Positions 3,120 through 14,566 of a stretch of DNA of 64,000 nucleotides are shown one piece after another (position 1 is the first letter of the stretch; each line of letters opens with the position of its first letter). The stretch spans positions 7,440,001 to 7,504,000 of the forward strand of contig OZ287748.1 of NCBI GenBank assembly GCA_965649765.1. The letters run 5' to 3'. The position numbers and the translations under genes were made by a program. The notes beneath the pieces are model-generated. The model was given only the letters and a program-made list of their open reading frames with translations, made no database searches and had not been told where the DNA came from. Source of the stretch: Bispira polyomma (taxonomy: Eukaryota).

Positions 3120-3340
3120 GCGCTTTTACTATATAATTTAAAAATATATTAAAAAGAGTAGGTCATAATGCGCTTTTACTATATCATTTAAAAACATATT
3201 AAAAAGAGTAGGTCATAATGTACCTTCTTGACGTCAACCAGTGTTGCTGTTAGTGAGGTGGTCTATAATTAGAAAATGAGTTGTTAATTTCTACCAGGTG
3301 GCTGGCCAGGTAACTAATACATAAAATAGAGTAAATATTT
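3120..3340 (+). repeat. Dispersed ~190 bp repeat (second copy ~5682-5860) with a local ~51 bp tandem duplication
   Basis: TTTTACTATATCATTT..ATATTAAAAAGA.TAGGT.ATAATG..TGTTGCTG..TACCAG.TGGCTGGCC..TAGAGTAAATATT is present at both loci. Confidence 0.75.
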
Positions 3341-4171
3341 TTTTAGAATTGTGTGACATTTTGTAGATAGATTTGTAGAGTATCATATTAATTAGATCTA
3401 CCTGGGGATTTTTGGGTAATATACACCTACGCTGGTCTTCCCCCTGCCTTGTATAGAAAACTATTGCAGCTAGCCTCACCAGATTTTCAGAATATGTTTA
3501 TTGCTATATTATCTTGCTCAGAGTTGATAAATTTGAGCCCCAATAATAAAAACAACATGGCCGCAGCAACAACTTCTCTAAAGAAAATTTATCATTCTCA
3601 GACAAACTGTTACAGATATCTTTATCTAATTTAGTATACAGTTTGCCTATATGTAAATATTCCTAACTGAACTTTGGCCTCATTTTAAAAAGCAAAATGC
3701 AACTTCTTTAAGGCCTTAGTAACGTAAACACAAAAAACGATCATCGCTAAACCACGTTATAAAAAAAAAACTGTCTAGCACCATACACTACTCTACACTA
3801 CTGTTATAAAGGCCTCAAAGTCCATTTTTAAAATACAATATTTTATTTTATGAGTTGTGAAAATGAAAGAGGACGGAATTATTAACAGTTCAAGCTCAAT
3901 TTAAAGAATTTCAACATTTATTTTAACAATTTAACAACAACAAATACTACGTATAAGCAGTTGTAAAATTGTATTAAAAATATGAATATTTGTCCAAGTA
4001 CACCCTTTACAAATGTGACACAATACACATACATATAAGAAAGCAATACTACAATATTGTACACCACCAGATACAGAATGACTACAGCATTATTTTGTAT
4101 GATTTACTTTTTCAATAATATTCAATAAACTGTGATAAAATTAGAAAATCACGTAAGTTAATATGTTACAA

Positions 4172-4460: not shown

Positions 4461-5933
4461 TTTTGCGGTCCACAGAACTATTTATGATAAAATAACTATA
4501 AATTTGTACAAACAAAAAGAAAAAAACAACGAAATTTATAAGCGGCCATTCTACTGTTCTGTAAGAAACTTATCTTTAAAATAGTGTTTGGGTCTTAATC
4601 TCAGGAAACAATTTAGAGAAAATTTGAAGTTTCATATAAAGTGTAACATTTGCTTGTCCCACTTAAGCTGCTGGTTTAACCACATTTTGATATACGATGT
4701 AGTGTATTGCTGTGTGTGAACTATAAAGATCATGAAGGAAAACAATATTAACTTCTAAAGCAAGTCACTGAATGAGTGTGTATATAATTGTTGCATTATA
4801 ATGACCATGGTAACCATTGTATCAAAGTATCAGTAATTAACATAATAATGAGCAAAAGGAAGGAATGTGTACTGAGAACTGCAACGTTAAACTGGGTCAC
4901 ACTTAAAACCTCTTTTGAAGATATGTGTGTTGTATTAGCAATGGTTGGAGATGGGCAAACCATTTGGTTAGAGGAAGAGGCCAGCCTTGTGTTTTGTGAT
5001 CACATTTTGGCAGTTCAAATGATGGATTCGTTATAAAATTGACTGGAATTTAATCTCACAAAGACTAATCTCATTATGTGAAAGCCAATGATCTGTAATT
5101 TTTTTCTGCAATCCTGCTGTCCCTTTTTGTCCTGGGAATACTACCAAAGAGTAGTTAACAAAATCATTTCTGATGGCACAACAACAACGACCAATGCAAC
5201 CTAAACAAATGGTGTATTTCTACCAAGCTTATAATCTGTATTAAAACAAATTATTTAAAACAAAGTATTGAAGTCAGTGATTTGTATTAGGTGTTATTTG
5301 TAATTTGTTATTGATAAGACACAGTATAATTGGGTTTTGGACATGTTGCTATATTATCAGTTTAGGTAGTTGGTGTGGTTAATTAAATAGAAGTTTCTTA
5401 GCACATTTTCTGAACAGCTGAGACAGTTCAATCGTCTTGCTATTTAGTAAATGTTTTAGGCCAAAACCCAACACAAAGAAGCCTTGTTTTCTTTTTTTGA
5501 CCACAAAGATCTTACTGTGAGTACAAGGAATGATATATTTTTGTGGTGACAAAATATAATTTGGTAGACTTTTGTAACAATGGTTTGATAGTGTAGCAGC
5601 TTCAAATCAGAAACCAGTGACGCAATTGCTTCTTTTAAGTCATCTGCATAAAGAAATACAGATACATAAGTTGTATACCGGTTTTACTATATCATTTTTT
5701 AAAATATTAAAAAGATTAGGTAATAATGTGTCTCCTTCCTGTAAACCAATGTTGCTGATAACTGTTGGTCAGCTGGTGTATAATAATTAGATAATCTGTT
5801 TTTAATCAATACCAGATGGCTGGCCGGGAAAGTGAATGGATAAAGTAGAGTAAATATTGTGTTAAAACAAATAATTTTAAGTTACACTACTACTGACTGA
5901 GAAGGTGAAAGGAGGTGAGGTGTATAAATAGTA

Positions 5934-6142
5934 TTTTATTGCAATACAATTACTTACCCAGTGAAACTGTGTGCTTACCGGTAGTTCGCCTGCTGGTGAC
6001 GACCAATCCCTAAGAGAAAAGGGGTTATTTACCGGTCGCCTCCGACGAAAGTCGGTCCGCCGGGGACCGGTACATCACGTGACCCTGCGCGAGAAGCTGC
6101 GCAAACGACCATTCTTTTACTGGTCGCCATTTTTGAAGCATC
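5934..6142 (+). repeat. DIRS left ITR with left extension
   Basis: The 165 bp core 5951-6115 is the reverse complement of 12753-12917; I counted 2 mismatches by eye. Imperfect pairing continues to ~6142. The unique outer extension TTTTATTGCAATACAAT is complementary to the ICR. Confidence 0.95.
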
Positions 6143-6212
6143 GTGTTTCGGATTACGAACTTTAATTGAAATTTACTTGGAACTGTCACAGGTTTTAAGA
6201 AAACGATCTATC

Positions 6213-8975
6213 ATGGAGTTATCTCTTTGGATATGGATTATGCTGGACCTTTTTGGTCCAACCTGGATAGGGTGGATAGGGTTTTGCAGAGCTTTCAGCT
6301 CTGGCCTTATCTTCCTGGGATACAAGATGGCGACCCGGTTCCCGGGTTTGTTGCATCTTGTGGGGGTACTTGTACCCTCGGGGAGATACAGGAGCTCCGC
6401 TCTCTGGCTTGTTGTCTGGCTGAGTTTACTCGGCGCAGTGGAGGGTAGAGTCCATCCCACGGGACCGTCTACCTCAATACAACTTCCTCCCCTGGCTATT
6501 CTGACGGTGGTGGCTATATCTCTGATATTTGCCGCCCTGTTTCTCATCTGCGTAGCCACCCCTCCTCCCAAGCCTCTTAGGGCTAGTGGTACGAAATCGG
6601 GACAGAAACAGGGCCGTTGTGGCCATTTCTTTGCATCATGGGATGACCATGGATGGTGTCCCACCTGCCGTCAGGCGGGTAAAGGCCAGGACCCTTGTGC
6701 GAAGAACCCTTCGGATTGCACGTTTTGTGCGTCCTTCACAGATGAACAAAGAAAGAAGATTAAGTTACGAGGCACCTACCGACAACGGCAGGACAAGAAA
6801 CGGGCCCCCCTGGCATCCCCAAAAGATACCCTGCTTGACTCGCCTAACCGGTCCGGTGGTGCTACCGGCCTAACCGGCACCGGAACCAGTACCGAAGCCA
6901 TGGAGGTATCAGACTTTGATGCCAACGTCCTCTTGGATGAACCCACTGAGCTACCTCAGTGCACGGCTTCTACTAGTAGTTTCCAACCACCTTACCCACA
7001 GAGGATCGATATCCAGATCCCATTGGAAAGGGTGACAGGTGTAGGCCCGACACCGGGTATGCCCGGTATTCAGCCGTTACCGCCGCCTCCCCCGGCTACA
7101 CCGATGACACAGTCGCGGGCTCTAGTGGATAATTTGAGAAATCAGTTTACCACGGAACTTTATTCTCTTCACGGCAAGATGGATCTGCAACAACAGCGGA
7201 CCGATAACTTGCTTCAACAGCAGGCGGCAAAGTCGGACTTACTACTTCAGACTCTGATGGAAGAACTATCCTCTTTGAAAAGTCAAACCCGAGGGAGGGA
7301 GCCTCAGGCCACCGGCGAGGTTGCCTCTCCTTCCCAACAGCCTCGTGCCCATTACGAGGATGCTTTAACGACATCCTCCCAACCGCAACCTCATACTAGG
7401 GGCTATCAGGAGCCTATGTTCGAGAAACCGGATAGGTCTTATGGACTACACCATACTAAGACCCCCATGGATACACAGCCGGACATATCATGGGACAAAG
7501 CCACCCCTGATCCTGATCAGGACATGGAGTATATGTCACCTAACACCTTGGCCCGTTATGAGCGTAAGTTCAAGAAAGAGCACAAGAGATCACATAAAAA
7601 GGATAAAAAGAGTCGTCATAGGAAGAGGACCCCAGACGCTTCGGCCTCGGACTCGTCGAATGATTCGGTTGACTATGAAGCGGCTCGACCAGTTAAATCT
7701 AAACATAAGGCTAAGCCTTCAGCTTCTTTAGGGGCTCCCCCGGCACGGGACCCGGAACGCGAGGCAGGCGAAGTCTCAGATGAAAATGAGGAGGAACACG
7801 CTGCAGCGTTTATCGCGGCCAAGAAAAGAGCTAGGGAGATTGTACAAACAGTAAATTCCCCTACGCCGGGACGAAACTCTCGGGATTCTTCACGTTCCCA
7901 CCGAAATTTTTCTGAGGACGATAACGCCACCACAACTAGGGACGAGTATACGTACTTCCCTACATATGTAGAAACTTTGAAGGCGGTTAGGGCAATACTG
8001 GACATTCCAGAACCGAAAAAAAACCCTAAGGAGGAATCTTCAACCTCGCTATTTCGGGCACAGCCAGCAGCGGAGGACTCCATATTGCCTCCATCTCTCA
8101 AGCTACCGGCTTTAGACTTGGCTTCAAAATTTCAGGCTCTCACTCTTGCTACAACTGCTCACCCTACCGGTGGAGAGTCTAGGCGCCTTCAGCAAGGAGA
8201 AATTCTAAAGATGCCCAGGTCGGATGTTAAATTTTATCCGATACAAGACGCCGCGTGGTCAGTCACACCACAACTACTTAATCCCAATTTCCGAGATATC
8301 GAGCAGAACAACCCCAGACAGACTCCGGTCTGTCACGTGTCTCAAAAGCAAATGCGGCAGTGGGAGGGTAGACAGAAGGAATGGCTCTCAGCCCTCAACC
8401 ACTACTCACACTTCTCTAGGGCGGCGGAGATAGCCATCACAAAGGCCCGCCAAGAGCAGGACCCGGCCCTTAAGGAAGAAAATTTAGCTATCGCACAGAG
8501 GGTCATGATTAGTATGTCTCGGGTCGTAGGACACCTCCACGCAGACATTATGACAATGATGGCAAACACAATTCTTTTTCGCAGAGATGCTGTGTTAACC
8601 AATCTGCACCCGTTTGTGCCAGGTCACTTGAAGTCCGACCTGAGGTCATCGTCGTACCAATCGACTGACCTATTCGACCCGGCAGTCGTCACCAAGGCCC
8701 AGGAGGCCATAAAGAACGAAAAAAGGTATAACACAAGCCGAGGTTCCTCAGGGGACTACAAACACAGAAGTAGCTCATCAAAGGGCTCTTATCGCGGCAA
8801 CAGGTCCTCACCCTATTACCAGGGTGGACGGGGTCGTTCTTCCCGGGGGCGGGGAAATAACTCGTACAGAGGTGGTCGTGGAGGCGGCGGTGGCAATGGA
8901 TCGGACAAAGGGTCAGGAGGAGGCTTCAAGAAGCCCTTCCCTCGTGGTGGAGGCCGGGGTGGCTCCTCCAAATGA
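6213..8975 (+). CDS. DIRS ORF1, Gag-like protein with Cys/His zinc finger, low-complexity middle region and RGG-rich C-terminus
   Basis: The frame is open from 6177, with in-frame ATGs at 6213, 6240 and 6327. It contains CGH..DDHGWCPTC..DPC..CTFC (6618-6728), typical of animal DIRS ORF1, a helical C-terminal domain and an RGGRGG tail. The true start is uncertain. Confidence 0.85.
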   Translation: MELSLWIWIMLDLFGPTWIGWIGFCRAFSSGLIFLGYKMATRFPGLLHLVGVLVPSGRYRSSALWLVVWLSLLGAVEGRVHPTGPSTSIQLPPLAILTVVAISLIFAALFLICVATPPPKPLRASGTKSGQKQGRCGHFFASWDDHGWCPTCRQAGKGQDPCAKNPSDCTFCASFTDEQRKKIKLRGTYRQRQDKKRAPLASPKDTLLDSPNRSGGATGLTGTGTSTEAMEVSDFDANVLLDEPTELPQCTASTSSFQPPYPQRIDIQIPLERVTGVGPTPGMPGIQPLPPPPPATPMTQSRALVDNLRNQFTTELYSLHGKMDLQQQRTDNLLQQQAAKSDLLLQTLMEELSSLKSQTRGREPQATGEVASPSQQPRAHYEDALTTSSQPQPHTRGYQEPMFEKPDRSYGLHHTKTPMDTQPDISWDKATPDPDQDMEYMSPNTLARYERKFKKEHKRSHKKDKKSRHRKRTPDASASDSSNDSVDYEAARPVKSKHKAKPSASLGAPPARDPEREAGEVSDENEEEHAAAFIAAKKRAREIVQTVNSPTPGRNSRDSSRSHRNFSEDDNATTTRDEYTYFPTYVETLKAVRAILDIPEPKKNPKEESSTSLFRAQPAAEDSILPPSLKLPALDLASKFQALTLATTAHPTGGESRRLQQGEILKMPRSDVKFYPIQDAAWSVTPQLLNPNFRDIEQNNPRQTPVCHVSQKQMRQWEGRQKEWLSALNHYSHFSRAAEIAITKARQEQDPALKEENLAIAQRVMISMSRVVGHLHADIMTMMANTILFRRDAVLTNLHPFVPGHLKSDLRSSSYQSTDLFDPAVVTKAQEAIKNEKRYNTSRGSSGDYKHRSSSSKGSYRGNRSSPYYQGGRGRSSRGRGNNSYRGGRGGGGGNGSDKGSGGGFKKPFPRGGGRGGSSK

Positions 8976-11031
8976 GACTCCACCGGAGCAGACGGCCTTA
9001 GGGGTTGGGGCGCGTTTGCTTCATTTTGTACCCGAATGGACATCGAAAGGAATAATCAAAAGAGAACTGGATATCATAAGACTAGGATATTCCCTTCCAT
9101 TTCGGAGAAAGCCTCCTCTCTCCCGGTTTCCATACATCATAAGCGGATACACGGGAATAGAAAAAGACAAAGCCTTACACAACTGTGTGGTGGACCTTCT
9201 GTTAAAACAAGCAGTAGTACCGGTACAAAAGACGAACTCGTTGGGATACACCAGTCGTCTTTTCCTCGTACCCAAACCGGGCAGCCGGTGGAGACCGGTC
9301 ATAGACCTCAGTACTCTCAACCAATACCTCGAGGTACACAAGTTCCGCATGGAGACCCCAGAATCCATCCGGGCCTCTCTACAACAGGGGGAATGGGTCA
9401 CCTCATTGGACCTCACGGATGCTTATCTACACATCCCTATTCACCCCAGTTCTCAGAAATACCTCAGGTTCCACCACAGAGGCAAGTCCTACCAGTTCAG
9501 GGCTCTTCCATTTGGACTAGCAACAGCCCCTCACGAGTTCACTCTGCTAGTCAAGGAAGTAAAACTGATGGCCCTCTCTTTGGGAGTTCGGATGCATCAG
9601 TATTTGGACGACTGGCTTATCAGAGCACCTTCGGCAGCTCAATGCCAAGCCAGCACAGAGACTGTGATTTCCCTCATCACAGATTTGGGCTGGATCATCA
9701 ATTACGGAAAGTCGGAACTTATCCCCTCACAGAACTTTACCTTCGTCGGGTACCAGTTCGATCTACAGAGGGGACTGGTACTACCTACAACAGACCGGTT
9801 GTGCAAGTTACAGGATATGATCAACTGGATACTCCTCATCTTTCAGGTGCCGGTGCGACTCTGGATGTCTCTTATCGGCCTCCTTGCGTCAACAGAAAAA
9901 CAAGTACCTGGGGATCGCCTTCAAATGCGACCTCTACAATGGCACCTGAAGAAACACTGGAGCTTCCCAGAAACCTTAAACAAACTCATTCCAGTGGACC
10001 CTCTCCTCAAGGCCCACCTCGAATGGTGGTTGGATCCGAGAAACGTGTTGGTGGGAGACTCTCTCCACCCTCTCGAGCACAATACATTGCTCTTTACAGA
10101 CGCTTCAAACGAAGGCTGGGGCGCTCACTTGGATTATCACACAGCACGAGGCGGATGGTCAGTGTCCGAACAAGATCTACACATAAATGTTTTAGAACTC
10201 AAGGCCGTTTATCTGGCTATACAGGCCTTCAAGGTTCAGTGCACCGGTCAAAGAGTCCTTCTGTCAACAGACAACTCATCTGTGGTAGCCTACATAAACA
10301 AACAGGGAGGCACACACTCGATGGAGATGTGTGCCCTAGTCTGGAGGATACAAACATTGTGTCACAAGTTAGCTGTGACTCTCCGAGCTCGTCACATTCC
10401 CGGATGTCGAAACGTCATCGCCGACGCTCTCTCCAGAAAGAACCAAGTCATCCAGACAGAGTGGTCACTCTGCCCTCGGATCTTCAAAACCCTGTGTCAC
10501 CAGTGGTACACCCCACATGTGGACATGTTTGCAACAAACTTGAATTACAAGCTACCGATATACGTCTCTCCACTTCCAGATCCACAAGCCTGGGCAGTGG
10601 ACGCTCTCAACATATCTTGGGACAACCTGGACGTTTACTGTTATCCCCCGACAGCTCTGATCGCCAAGGTGATCAACAAAGTACGCACTCACAGGTGCAG
10701 GGTACTTCTCATAGCCCCAGGGTGGCCGGGAATGCCCTGGTTCTGGGACCTCGTGGACTTATCACTGCGAGTCCCTCTACTGCTACCTCCACGCCACAAC
10801 TTACTCAGACAACCGTGGAACCTCCGGTTCCATCCGGATCCGGCATTCCTGAACCTTCACGCTTGGTGTCTAGGAGTACCGGACTACAAGAGCAAGGCTT
10901 CACCCCTGCAGTGGCAGAAAGGATTGCTCAACCTCAGAGGCTCTCTACAAGATCCGTCTACAAGTCAAAGTGGACCGTTTTTCAACGATGGTGTGAGGAA
11001 AAGCAGGTGGACTTCACATGCCCACCTATAA
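8824..11031 (+). CDS. DIRS ORF2: reverse transcriptase + RNase H + DNA N6-adenine methyltransferase-like domain
   Basis: RT motifs SRLFLVPK, WRPVIDL, LDLTDAYLHIP, LPFGLATAP, YLDDWL. RNase H motifs FTDASNEGWG, HINVLELKAV, TDNSSVVAYINKQGG, NVIADALSR. MT-like motifs VDMFAT and YCYPP. The conserved part begins near VGARL (~9004); the start codon is uncertain. Confidence 0.96.
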   Translation: MDGVVLPGGGEITRTEVVVEAAVAMDRTKGQEEASRSPSLVVEAGVAPPNETPPEQTALGVGARLLHFVPEWTSKGIIKRELDIIRLGYSLPFRRKPPLSRFPYIISGYTGIEKDKALHNCVVDLLLKQAVVPVQKTNSLGYTSRLFLVPKPGSRWRPVIDLSTLNQYLEVHKFRMETPESIRASLQQGEWVTSLDLTDAYLHIPIHPSSQKYLRFHHRGKSYQFRALPFGLATAPHEFTLLVKEVKLMALSLGVRMHQYLDDWLIRAPSAAQCQASTETVISLITDLGWIINYGKSELIPSQNFTFVGYQFDLQRGLVLPTTDRLCKLQDMINWILLIFQVPVRLWMSLIGLLASTEKQVPGDRLQMRPLQWHLKKHWSFPETLNKLIPVDPLLKAHLEWWLDPRNVLVGDSLHPLEHNTLLFTDASNEGWGAHLDYHTARGGWSVSEQDLHINVLELKAVYLAIQAFKVQCTGQRVLLSTDNSSVVAYINKQGGTHSMEMCALVWRIQTLCHKLAVTLRARHIPGCRNVIADALSRKNQVIQTEWSLCPRIFKTLCHQWYTPHVDMFATNLNYKLPIYVSPLPDPQAWAVDALNISWDNLDVYCYPPTALIAKVINKVRTHRCRVLLIAPGWPGMPWFWDLVDLSLRVPLLLPPRHNLLRQPWNLRFHPDPAFLNLHAWCLGVPDYKSKASPLQWQKGLLNLRGSLQDPSTSQSGPFFNDGVRKSRWTSHAHL

Positions 11032-11942
11032 ATAAAGTAGCAGACTTCTTGATGCACCTATACTCGGACAAGAACCTAAGACCTTCTACCATAGAAGGCT
11101 ACAGGACGGCTATTGCGGATACCCTCGGTTCCACAGTGAATATTAGTCACAATCAGGATATCTCTCGTTTACTGACCAGTTTTCATCGAGACAGGCCTAA
11201 GGCAGCCAGATCCTTACCAAAGTGGAACCTCTCGGTTGTTCTACATCAGCTTACTTGTCCTCCTTTTGAACCGTTAAGAAAAGCAGAACTGAAGCATCTT
11301 ACTTACAAGACAGCCTTCTTACTTGCTCTGGCATCAGGAAAACGTCGGAGCGAAATTCACGCTTGGATATTTGAATACATGCGAAATCTGGGCCACTGGG
11401 AGAAAATATCTTTAGCAGCCTCCCCGGCCTTTTTGGCCAAGAATCAACTTGCCAGGGAAGGACCACAGTGTATCGCACCGGTGATCATCCCGGCTCTCGC
11501 TCCAGCCTTAGACAGAAGCCTAATTACAGACAGATCTTTGTGTCCTGTCAGAGCCCTGAGATACTACTTGGATAAAGTATCCGATATCAGGAAAGGTAGA
11601 AAGCTCTTGTTTGTGTCCTTTAAGAAAGGCCACACCAAAGAAATACAGGCGTCAACCATATCATCATGGATTAAAGAAACAGTTAAGTTGTGTTACTCTC
11701 TCGCTGATGATCACTCTCTCGACCTTTTACAGGTCAAAGCTCATGACGTCAGAGCTTTCGCGGCCTCCAAAGCCTTCCAAGGTGGCGTTTCGGTCGATCA
11801 AATTATGTCAGCCTGCCATTGGAAGTCGCATTCCACGTTCACGGACTTTTACTTGAAAGACCTGGCCTGGGCAGACAAGGACTACCTCTACCTAGGTCCT
11901 GTTGTAGCTGCTCAACAGATTGTGGATACTTCACCTTCCTGA
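9036..11942 (+). CDS. DIRS ORF3: tyrosine recombinase with a long N-terminal extension overlapping ORF2
   Basis: The C-terminal ~350 aa has a core-binding region (STRSVYKSKW...STIEGYRTAI) and catalytic motifs GKRRSEI (R), LCPVRAL, HDVR (HxxR) and HWKSHSTFTDFY (W, Y). The N-terminal ~620 aa is S/P/T/R/G-rich and overlaps ORF2 in another frame. Confidence 0.95.
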   Translation: MDIERNNQKRTGYHKTRIFPSISEKASSLPVSIHHKRIHGNRKRQSLTQLCGGPSVKTSSSTGTKDELVGIHQSSFPRTQTGQPVETGHRPQYSQPIPRGTQVPHGDPRIHPGLSTTGGMGHLIGPHGCLSTHPYSPQFSEIPQVPPQRQVLPVQGSSIWTSNSPSRVHSASQGSKTDGPLFGSSDASVFGRLAYQSTFGSSMPSQHRDCDFPHHRFGLDHQLRKVGTYPLTELYLRRVPVRSTEGTGTTYNRPVVQVTGYDQLDTPHLSGAGATLDVSYRPPCVNRKTSTWGSPSNATSTMAPEETLELPRNLKQTHSSGPSPQGPPRMVVGSEKRVGGRLSPPSRAQYIALYRRFKRRLGRSLGLSHSTRRMVSVRTRSTHKCFRTQGRLSGYTGLQGSVHRSKSPSVNRQLICGSLHKQTGRHTLDGDVCPSLEDTNIVSQVSCDSPSSSHSRMSKRHRRRSLQKEPSHPDRVVTLPSDLQNPVSPVVHPTCGHVCNKLELQATDIRLSTSRSTSLGSGRSQHILGQPGRLLLSPDSSDRQGDQQSTHSQVQGTSHSPRVAGNALVLGPRGLITASPSTATSTPQLTQTTVEPPVPSGSGIPEPSRLVSRSTGLQEQGFTPAVAERIAQPQRLSTRSVYKSKWTVFQRWCEEKQVDFTCPPINKVADFLMHLYSDKNLRPSTIEGYRTAIADTLGSTVNISHNQDISRLLTSFHRDRPKAARSLPKWNLSVVLHQLTCPPFEPLRKAELKHLTYKTAFLLALASGKRRSEIHAWIFEYMRNLGHWEKISLAASPAFLAKNQLAREGPQCIAPVIIPALAPALDRSLITDRSLCPVRALRYYLDKVSDIRKGRKLLFVSFKKGHTKEIQASTISSWIKETVKLCYSLADDHSLDLLQVKAHDVRAFAASKAFQGGVSVDQIMSACHWKSHSTFTDFYLKDLAWADKDYLYLGPVVAAQQIVDTSPS

Positions 11943-12565
11943 ACTACTCTCAACATGTGATATTTGCCTCAGTGTATGTGCCTGTGACCCGGCTACTCTC
12001 TTGTGAAAACCAGGGGGGGGAACCGACCGGATTGTGACACCCGACGGTGCCCCACCGGTCATCCGGATCCATGACTACCGGATCTGGAGTGCTACATACA
12101 GCAGGATACCTGTATCGATGGTGAGAGCAAAGTTGACTTATTCTGTTTTGACCTTAAAACACACATGTAAGCATGGTTGTCGAAAATAAAGTATGTTAAT
12201 ACTATAATTCTGGGGGATAACGGATTACGATCTGTTCTCATATAATAAATATACATATACTTGTCAATATTAGTTCCAGAGTGATATCTAATTATTGCGT
12301 GTATTTTAACCCTTTGTAGGTCAGGAAGTCTTACAGTGTGTGGAAGTTCTGGTACTCCAGGAAAAGGTGGGCGCCTCGACTACAGAGAGCTTCATGCTAT
12401 GGTAAGTTACCATTACCTACTAAACTAATTCCTTCTTTCCTTATAGGATCAGACAGGAAAAGACAGCATCACCACCATCAATACTAATAACTTTGTTTAT
12501 TTTAGAGAAAAGGAGTTCTACCAGCTTCCCTGTGGCGTTTACCCACCTCCTTGGTGATGGTATTC

Positions 12566-12664
12566 AGCACACAGTTTCACTGGGTAAGTAATTGTATTGC
12601 AATAAAATTAAAAATTTTATTCATAAATTGTATTTTTATAAAATACATACTTACCCAGTGAAAC
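12566..12664. repeat. DIRS internal complementary region (ICR)
   Basis: 12566-~12608 is the reverse complement of the element's left end and ~12602-12664 is the reverse complement of its right end, so the ICR is a copy of the circle junction. Confidence 0.95.
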
Positions 12665-12723
12665 GGTTAGAGTCCCACCCAACCTGCCCCGCGGTTAACG
12701 CCAAGGGTAGTGTTATGTCAATA

Positions 12724-12961
12724 GATGGGTTCAAAAATGGCTCTAGTAAATCAGAATGGTCGTTTGCGCAGCTTCTCGCGCAGGGTCACGTGATGTACCG
12801 GTCCCCGGCGGACCGACTCTCGTCGGAGGCGACCGGTAAATAACCCCTTTTCTCTTAGGGATTGGTCGTCACCGGCAGGCGAACTACCGGTAAGCACACA
12901 GTTTCACTGGGTAAGTATGTATTTTATAAAAATACAATTTATGAATAAAATTTTTAATTTT
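12724..12961 (-). repeat. DIRS right ITR with right extension
   Basis: Reverse complement of the left ITR, followed by the extension TGTATTTTATAAAAATACAATTTATGAATAAAATTTTTAATTTT, which is complementary to the second half of the ICR. Confidence 0.95.
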
Positions 12962-14566
12962 ATAGCGAATATTGCCCTTACTATTTCCTAACAATAGCTT
13001 ACATGTTGGAGCCGTCAAATTCACTGGCCAACGAAGATAAACGTTTTATGCTACCTTAAGCATACCAGTGAATTTTAGGTCTGTGTAGAGGACAATGGTC
13101 AGTCCCCCCTAAATAGGTCACATGGGAACCCCAAAGGCGGTAACCCTCATCTTTTTTTTTGTTGCAAGAAAGCCTAAAGTGAATACTTATCTTGCGGGGA
13201 TGGTAGGGAGGGACTTTCCTTGTTAGGAAATAATATGGTATTATCTTATCAAATTTAAAATTAATTTTTAAATTTGGCAAATTTTTAAATTTGGCAAATT
13301 GATGGAGTTAGAGGCCATTTAGGTGGCCAATATGGTGTTTTTTCGCTACTGGGAGTAAAAAAAATCAGTAGTTGTCGACTCGCAGCTTGTGAACCTTCTA
13401 TAGATTCTTTACAAACTTTGAAAGAGAAATATTAATTATTTTAAATACACATTTTGGCAAGAGACAAGTGGTCTCCAATGTGTACAACTGTTATGATATA
13501 AAAGACGTACATGGTACACCACATTTTTTAACAAACTTGGAAGGGGTACCACCATAATATATATTCATCATGCTGGATGTTACACAATATAATGTTCTCA
13601 TTATGAAACATCAGATATAACTACTGTATCTCCAGGGTTGAATTTTTGCCCTTCTGTCAGACTGTTCCCCAGTAGAATGGAACAGATTGATGTTCATCAG
13701 CTAGCGATATCCCTTTTTTATTGACCTAGAAAAAAACCTGGACATTTTTCATTGTCTGTCCTGGAAGAAAGTACATCAAAAAGCAAAGTTTAAATCATGT
13801 GACCTAGAATTCTTGGCCTTTGTGTACATAGAGGTTTCAGTATTTTTCTTAAAGTCTGTCATTGCTTCCAAAATCATTATTTCAGATTGCTAATTACTGA
13901 CGTTACTCTCTGATACAGTTACAAGTTAAAACAAAGAAAGAAATTGGCCTTACAATTCTTAGCTGAGGACAACTGAATCAGTACATTTAAGCCCAACATT
14001 ATTATTATAGAGGATTTTTGACAATTGTGTCAATGAAAAGAACAGCGAAGATTAATGATTCGACTTTTTACTCTCGTGTAATTTACACTCTTCGCTGACC
14101 TTTACACAAAAGAAATAGGTCTCATTTACTTTATTATAATCATTAAAGCATTGCTTCTTAGATTCCTAATATGCAAATGTAATATTTTTTAAATGAACAA
14201 AGTTGCTTTTAGCTGAGATTTTGGCAGAAAAAACTCTTTGATGTGTTTTATTTTATACCAATAGTAAGCAAATATACAAACTGTAAAGTTGATTGTTTTG
14301 GAATAAATAATTGAACCTTAAAACAACATACTAGATAGATTGTATTAGTTGAAACAGCCTGTAAAAATGGCAGTGATAGAAGATTTCGGACATAGCAGTT
14401 AAAATTTTCAGAATTTAATATACGGTAATGAAACAAAAGTTTATACACAAAAAACAAAGTTCAGAAGGTGGATACATGTTTTTGGATCATATAAGATTGG
14501 ATAGTAGTATTTTAATGTGGACAGAAAAATGTAAATAATGAAAAGACAGAGAACATCATACTAAGT

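Follow-up and report, generated by a model that had tools for sequence, protein, structure and literature searches.

DIRS1-like elements, which are tyrosine-recombinase (YR) retrotransposons, have been described by a common set of features. These are inverted terminal repeats (ITRs) with a right extension, TTT ends, an internal complementary region (ICR) with overlapping halves, and an open reading frame 1 (ORF1) carrying a LAP2alpha-like domain, together with a reverse transcriptase and RNase H (RT/RNase H) frame and an overlapping YR frame (PMC3266345, Piednoel et al. 2011; PMC9210276, on Xenopus families). DIRS ORF1 is termed Gag by position only, without being clearly homologous to retroviral Gag (PMC4495291). 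In the literature we found no account of a DIRS assembly site or of the route of these elements to chromatin. Here, we analysed a 64,000-nucleotide stretch of the Bispira polyomma genome (contig OZ287748.1, positions 7,440,001 to 7,504,000; hereafter the window), in which positions 5933-12966 hold an element with all three reading frames open. ITRs with a right extension and TTT ends, overlapping ICR halves, RT/RNase H with an overlapping YR frame and a LAP2alpha-like ORF1 domain are all present, and the element is DIRS1-like. Its ORF1 differs from those described in PMC3266345 and PMC9210276 by an N-terminal leader-signal-transmembrane module of 115 amino acids (aa). A first-pass annotation had read this part of the DNA as a possible membrane-anchored Gag.

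A predicted signal and transmembrane module at the N-terminus of ORF1

In the window copy, the ORF1 frame is open from 6000 to 8975. Its N-terminal part is composed of the following segments, given with the ratio of nonsynonymous to synonymous divergence (pN/pS) among the subfamilies introduced below where available:

6213..6323, + strand: Trp-rich hydrophobic leader, from M1 to K-M39 (pN/pS 0.33-0.46, with wide intervals)
6324..6398, + strand: in-frame start M39 (the second) with an amphipathic, basic n-region (4 K/R, 0 D/E)
6399..6446, + strand: signal-peptide-like h- and c-region ALWLVVWLSLLGAVEG, with a predicted signal-peptidase cut after 6446 (V-E-G before R)
6447..6491, + strand: polar linker of 15 aa, the predicted luminal stub (pN/pS 1.1-1.7 among young subfamilies, i.e. 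unconstrained)
6492..6557, + strand: predicted transmembrane (TM) helix LAILTVVAISLIFAALFLICVA, 22 uncharged residues (aa 94-115; Kyte-Doolittle (KD) score 3.04; pN/pS 0.20-0.33)
6558..6617, + strand: Pro-rich basic juxtamembrane segment (5 K/R, 0 D/E)

The positions that the first-pass annotation had assigned to the signal-like segment, the linker, the helix and the start of the zinc finger at 6618 were all correct. The KD score of the helix is the peak over 19 residues, and beyond aa 120 the maximum is 1.15. Among 20,000 dinucleotide-matched random 345-mers, 0.01% reached a KD of 3.04, 1.1% were open, and none combined the two. Four positive charges precede the signal, one lies in the stub and five follow the helix, a pattern that agrees with the positive-inside rule. 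The basic patch behind the TM segment comprises 3-7 K/R within 16 aa in the loci tabulated. An AlphaFold2 (AF2) model of residues 1-200 places a helix at 93-114 with low confidence. The sequence thus has the layout of a type I membrane protein, with an h-region, small residues at -3 and -1, and one TM segment with a positive C-terminal flank; insertion, cleavage and topology are predictions from this layout.

A search for homologous proteins with ORF1 residues 1-200 and 570-840 gave no match. When the N-terminus was aligned in such a search, the foreign protein P0015 was the sole match among 8000 candidates scored. The ESM Atlas returned no usable match, and no Pfam family was found on ORF1.

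Sibling copies point to selection on the module as protein

To compare sibling copies, the host genome (1.035 Gb, 75 contigs) was searched by DNA (best 40 of 157 candidates) and by the finger (best 150 of 3474). We analysed 90 loci, namely 36 of subfamily A, 12 of B, 27 of C and 12 of D, plus three intermediates, which do not enter the contrasts between subfamilies. Their N-terminal DNA is ~98 (A), ~86 (B), ~82 (C) and ~60% (D) identical to the window copy. Indels common to a whole subfamily measure -1, +1 and +2 upstream of 6213; downstream they are net multiples of three (+3, +3, +3, +3 and +9 in D, +3 in C). Copies in which the stretch 6213-6558 is intact number 30/36 in A, 8/12 in B and 26/27 in C. 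Subfamily D is old and decayed; when translated directly, three of its 12 copies (L103, L104, L108) are open from M1 up to and including the helix. An apparent stop at 6387 in D proved to be a projection artefact, these three copies being open there; conversely, D copy L102 is broken, though projection had scored it as intact.

Calculated column-wise over the 115 codons with bootstrap intervals, pN/pS amounts to 0.45 (0.26-0.81) for A-B, 0.50 (0.29-0.83) for A-C and 0.46 (0.30-0.70) for B-C. The values against D, which are uncorrected, are 0.58-0.66. The region upstream yields 0.78-2.68, and shifted frames yield 0.58-2.87. Within the helix, 13 of 14 substitutions remain hydrophobic compared to 7.0 expected (P=1e-4), and in the h-region 9 of 11 do so compared to 5.1 expected (P=0.013); for the first ten ORF1 codons the count is 5/6 (P=0.10). 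Signal peptidase requires small residues at -3 and -1, with V allowed at -3 and G, C, A or T at -1. Position -3 is V in 88/88 copies, and position -1 is small in all 88 (G in 61, C in 17, A in 8 and T in 2). Frame, hydrophobicity, pN/pS below 1 and indels in multiples of three, by which the first-pass proposal was to be judged in sibling copies, are all found, and the stops or frameshifts that would have spoken against it are absent from most young siblings. Judged from these copies, the module is coding and less constrained than the remaining ORF1, and it is chemistry that selection keeps.

Start codons and the possibility of splicing

As the first-pass annotation had stated, the only in-frame Met codons ahead of the finger are 1 (6213), 10 (6240) and 39 (6327), and the next is Met 230. 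It had singled out 6327 for its strong context; the context is indeed strong, but not unique, as M1 is the first ATG and also strong. The context of M1 combines a -3 purine with G at +4 in all A (36) and B (12) copies, in 26/27 C and in 9/12 D copies. The ATG at 6213 is retained in 79 of 87 copies (A 36, B 12, C 23, D 8) and that at 6327 in 35 A, 12 B, 26 C and 8 D copies. The ATG at 6240 is kept in 36 A, 11 B and 21 C copies, and M10 was rejected as a start because it is absent from D (0/12). No ATG lies between the element end and 6213 in the window copy; upstream ATGs in other copies are sporadic, except for one inside the terminal repeat in 21/27 C copies and another in 4/12 D copies. In most C copies, an in-frame stop precedes M1 by four codons. 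Between helix and finger, a Met occurs in 1/90 copies. An overlapping 72-codon frame from the ATG at 6233 was also discarded, since it is lost in B and its pN/pS is 1.5-2.9. These comparisons place the beginning of the ORF1 frame at the first ATG, 6213.

Removal of the hydrophobic segments by splicing, which had been named as a way to refute the proposal, finds no support in the candidate acceptors: the AG at 6554 is lost in C and D (GTT), and the AG at 6579, part of an Arg codon, reads GAG in D. By eye, none of the seven GT sites common to all subfamilies has a donor consensus. The eight deletions of >=20 nt, found in 6/90 copies, include none with GT..AG ends and one 29-nt singleton with GC..AG. 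Among the 15 of 16 joints listed for three contig sets of unrecorded type, there is no GT..AG joint within 6330-6580, though contigs can reveal neither splicing nor its absence. A minor spliced form may thus exist.

The layout in distant families and foreign homologs

A distant family of the same genome, E (L175-L177), is 77% identical in the recombinase and 29% in the N-terminal half of Gag, and its match to the element's 5' end ceases after ~58 nt. Its ORF1 starts at the first ATG, in strong context, and leads through FYLLCLFFSSLYNPVYA (V-Y-A before R at the predicted cut), a 10-aa linker, a helix and SPKKK to the finger. The signal-linker-helix layout is also present in older E-like copies and in L214, L180 and L181. 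Linker and helix together measure 33-39 aa in each of the 14 loci, out of 15 tabulated, for which a cleavage site was placed, and the predicted stub is 10-16 aa long across loci and begins with R, K or T. By eye, a leader recurs that has two Met, M1 and a second one that follows K or H.

Two observations concern family E itself. Young E copies (L175:1407-1550) do not contain an in-frame 29-codon leader piece of the older L205, L212 and L215, while signal and helix are intact. Moreover, L175-L177 are near-identical, lie within ~1.1 Mb (G000:C5:22.81-23.89 Mb) and share breaks, perhaps owing to segmental duplication rather than transposition.

Other DIRS families of the genome served as controls. 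By eye, the frame is closed by a stop shortly upstream of the finger in all 15 loci inspected, and in most of them a Met lies 13-25 aa ahead of it; each of these loci is weak alone because it is decayed. In a quick recombinase tree of 26 rows, from which L181, L182, L189, L190 and L194 were left out (short or no match), the 14 anchor-bearing rows and L180 fall on one side of a branch with 98% support, under midpoint rooting only.

The best 150 of 417 foreign homologs include 128 with a recognisable finger, and 99 of these begin <30 aa before it. The N-termini of the other 29 are longer; by eye, most of these are predictions extended too far, with a Met lying close to the finger. The signal-linker-helix layout occurs in two of the best 150, P0015/P0152 (KD 2.87) and P0026 (KD 3.01). 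P0015 and P0026 derive from ENA assemblies, and P0015 matches the host genome at <=45%; metagenome scans for both gave no match. In a finger tree of 158 rows, all 12 anchor rows lie in one group of 13, though at a support of 0.097; a common origin is at most suggested by this grouping. The foreign finger proteins P0122, P0078 and P0081 lie near this group; P0122 opens with VGTP, like the end of the P0026 helix, and may be a truncated anchored ORF1.

The remaining ORF1 and the surrounding element

Downstream of the module, ORF1 contains three further features:

6618..6728, + strand: Cys/His zinc-finger-like domain, common to a large ORF1 family (pN/pS 0.06-0.12)
7563..7628, + strand: basic cluster, aa 451-472, a candidate nuclear localisation signal
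7950..8717, + strand: LAP2alpha-like helical domain (AF2 pLDDT 80 for residues 570-840)

For residues 570-840, the structure 2v0x was the top match both in Foldseek (prob 1.00, E 0.054) and in VIA (Z 9.9, rmsd 4.2, 189 aligned; next match 7.6). In an HMM search LAP2alpha was the third match (E 0.037), and the Pfam LAP2alpha family gave no match to ORF1. The model's best fold match is thus the LAP2alpha dimerisation domain, with scores that are moderate for a helical fold. None of the fold matches listed for aa 570-840 is a capsid fold. The LAP2alpha domain of mammals is reported to derive from DIRS ORF1, an origin with which the moderate scores agree; LAP2alpha binds lamin A and is present in the pre-integration complex of murine leukaemia virus (MLV) (PMC4495291).

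The element has a GC content of ~51% against a background of 33%, and is organised as follows:

5933..6115, + strand: left ITR with TTT start (5936-6115 is 95% complementary to 12753-12932)
6213..8975, + strand: ORF1 ('Gag'), 920 aa, beginning at the element's first ATG
8713..11031, + strand: pol frame, coding for RT and RNase H, with a methyltransferase-like part at its C-terminus
8976..11942, + strand: ORF3, overlapping pol, with the tyrosine recombinase at its 3' end (PF00589, E 6e-6)
12566..12667, + strand: ICR (I3, 100% to 5933-5975; I2, 97% to 12898-12966)
12753..12966, + strand: right ITR and right extension, which reaches 12966, with TTT end

The ICR halves I3 and I2 overlap at 12599-12608, so that the circle-junction feature of DIRS1-like elements is present. 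The best match of the methyltransferase-like part, PF12237, is weak (E 0.14); the motifs that follow RNase H resemble those of an adenine methyltransferase. ORF3 (8973-11942, 988 codons) starts right behind the ORF1 TGA in the same frame, and this also applies to two B copies, with 982 and 988 codons. If this TGA is read through, an anchored ORF1-recombinase fusion would result.

The conserved motifs CACGTGAC and GTCGCCATTTT, which we take to be E-box-like and YY1-like, respectively, lie at 6076-6134, by the terminal repeat's inner end; this stretch is a likely promoter. Family E has a similar motif ~45 nt upstream of M1. Contig depth on the terminal repeat (5944-6119) is several-fold to ~40-fold that of ORF1, suggesting that the element end is common to many other families or non-autonomous elements. 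The left flank carries a short AT-rich repeat in two copies, ~80% identical (3121-3348 and 5679-5867).

Proposed membrane tethering and alternative explanations

The reading of ORF1 as a membrane-anchored Gag is well supported by comparison, namely by frame, selection, hydrophobic substitutions, cleavage motif and recurrence in distant families. At the level of sequence, the frame starts at 6213, selection acts on the protein that the segments encode, and distant families have the layout too. We consider it very probable that ORF1 is inserted into a membrane. Given insertion, a tether at the endoplasmic reticulum (ER) or nuclear envelope is its probable role.

According to the model that we favour on balance, ORF1 would be an ER membrane protein with a single pass, and would keep the RNA and enzymes of the element at the ER or nuclear envelope of the same cell. 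Translation would start from M1 or M39, and the signal-like segment would engage the signal recognition particle (SRP). Signal peptidase would cut after residue 78, so that both starts lead to an identical mature protein. What remains in the lumen would be a stub of ~15 aa, the helix would act as stop-transfer, and the remaining ~800 aa, with finger, basic cluster and LAP2alpha-like dimerisation domain, would face the cytosol. The element's own RNA might be captured co-translationally at the ER, as for IAP and Ty1, and chromatin might be reached via the nuclear envelope. The latter is continuous with the ER, and access could come through this continuity and through capture at mitotic exit. Tethering fits both the anatomy of ORF1 and its LAP2alpha-like domain. 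We rank it above cell-to-cell spread because IAP and Ty1 use ER targeting for intracellular retrotransposition.

Several observations weigh against this model. The module, at 0.45-0.50, is under weaker constraint than the remaining ORF1 (0.03-0.22), and variants shared within A give the same picture (0.45 against 0.03-0.14). Taken alone, the 16 signal codons have pN/pS values of 0.33, 1.33 and 0.56 with intervals that span 1, and the three pairwise contrasts are not independent because they share branches. Synonymous divergence in 6213-6492 is below that of the helix or the finger, which suggests an overlapping nucleotide-level or RNA signal there, e.g. a packaging element. The AF2 model of residues 1-200 is poor (pLDDT 57) and unusable for a fold search. 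Support for the anchor group in the finger tree, 0.097, is too low to place it and the foreign proteins at one origin. Furthermore, most DIRS families transpose without an anchor.

The low synonymous divergence would also be expected if a cis-acting RNA signal lay here within a 5' untranslated region (UTR) or an intron, with the hydrophobic frame being incidental and Gag arising from a non-AUG codon or after splicing. T-rich UTRs do yield hydrophobic codons (L194 reaches KD 2.75 across stops, over-extended foreign predictions <=2.27), and GTG codons occur within the helix. We nevertheless regard this as highly improbable: indels keep the frame and pN/pS is below 1, the candidate acceptors are lost and the large deletions lack GT..AG ends, and family E has the same protein layout beyond the point where its 5' match ceases. 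Less remote, though still quite unlikely, is a first segment that stays uncleaved, so that a hairpin of two helices (or, from M1, three segments) would hold ORF1 and both of its ends would lie in the cytosol. The h-region is moderately hydrophobic (KD13 1.65-2.48), the linker is short, and the E at -2 is nearly invariant in A-D, beyond what cleavage alone needs; however, -1 varies only within G/C/A/T and -3 only between V and A, also where the flanks of the families are unrelated.

Two further alternatives accept cleavage or anchoring and differ in what follows, and we hold both to be unlikely. After signal cleavage, an intramembrane cut by gamma-secretase or a similar protease could release soluble ORF1 for the nucleus in a timed manner. 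The predicted stub of merely 10-16 aa and the basic cluster at aa 451-472 are in line with this, as is the near absence of a Met (1/90 copies) from which a soluble form could be made. Gamma-secretase favours short ectodomains (PMC3826621) and can cut substrates with short ectodomains without shedding, but a short ectodomain is insufficient, as a permissive TM segment and tail are required (PMC2570425). Alternatively, ORF1 could serve as its own envelope or matrix, budding into vesicles or reaching the surface and carrying the ribonucleoprotein (RNP) between cells, perhaps helped by the freed Trp-rich leader. Its type I layout, with TM segment and basic patch, resembles part of the anatomy of sORF2 and FAST proteins (PMC11952523). 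The M1-M39 leader is retained although cleavage would remove it, and the clade is apparently the most amplified DIRS group here (copy numbers being lower bounds). Against such a role, the stub is unconstrained, 10-16 aa long, begins with R/K/T and has no myristoylatable G; by eye it has no conserved amphipathic ectodomain motif, and hallmarks of a fusogen are missing. In addition, the C-terminal domain matches LAP2alpha, with no capsid fold among the matches listed. ER or nuclear-envelope tethering stays our preferred reading.

A wider proposition is less probable than this reading, and we put it forward tentatively: in more than one host, a clade of YR retrotransposons may have made ORF1 an obligatory integral membrane protein, serving as RNP scaffold and membrane coat. 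It would use the secretory pathway for nuclear entry via the envelope or for exit from the cell without env, and the conserved 78-aa leader would be released as a second product.

Comparison with known systems

Judged by the titles that our literature searches listed, we found no published account of a membrane-anchored DIRS ORF1. In the text retrieved, the word 'membrane' is absent from PMC3266345 and PMC9210276 (main texts), PMC3783388 and PMC6681497, and 'transmembrane' from PMC12440569; 'membrane' occurs three times in PMC7192593 and twice in PMC5890265. Judged by the comparisons above, the selected N-terminal module is real and defines a distinct branch of DIRS1-like elements, most relatives being without it. 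An anchored clade beside anchor-less sister families in one genome offers a ready comparison and makes the question of DIRS assembly testable.

The element would be a YR parallel to the ER signal acquired by murine IAP. IAP is likewise Env-less and gained an ER-targeting peptide in frame with Gag (bioRxiv 10.1101/2022.06.22.497016, citing Fehrmann 2003 and Ribet 2008); its Gag is, however, of the capsid type, derived from a retrovirus, and buds into the ER, whereas here a predicted cleavable signal and a separate TM segment belong to the apparently non-capsid ORF1 of a YR element. Yeast Ty1 also relies on ER delivery, as SRP brings retrotransposon RNA and Gag to sites where assembly nucleates, but Ty1 Gag has no discernible signal or TM segment and enters the lumen (PMC3945221), while ORF1 is predicted to be anchored and to face the cytosol. 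In MLV glyco-Gag, an in-frame N-terminal extension directs Gag to the ER as well. There, an upstream CUG gives rise to an accessory isoform whose unique N-terminus is cytosolic (PMC3042739); the extension described here begins with AUG, seems to be obligatory and has the opposite topology by prediction.

The sORF2 proteins of the Drosophila MDG1 group, like ORF1, come from an Env-less retrotransposon, and share with it and with the FAST fusogens a single TM segment, a small ectodomain and a basic patch. sORF2 stands as a short protein of its own, and its ectodomain is amphipathic and often myristoylated (PMC11952523), whereas the TM segment here is fused to an 800-aa ORF1 with a stub that has neither property. 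Compared to the sORF2/FAST fusogens, the post-TM basic patch is present; a stand-alone protein of 100-200 aa is not, as no stop lies between the TM segment and residue 920, nor is a conserved myristoylated or amphipathic ectodomain. Finally, the best fold match of ORF1 leads to mammalian LAP2alpha and LAP2beta, the domain of the former stemming from DIRS ORF1. In TMPO, the DIRS-derived domain takes the place of the TM region (PMC4495291), while in the ORF1 described here a predicted TM helix and a LAP2alpha-like domain occur in one chain. This combination bears on the ancestral role of a domain that was domesticated at the mammalian nuclear lamina.

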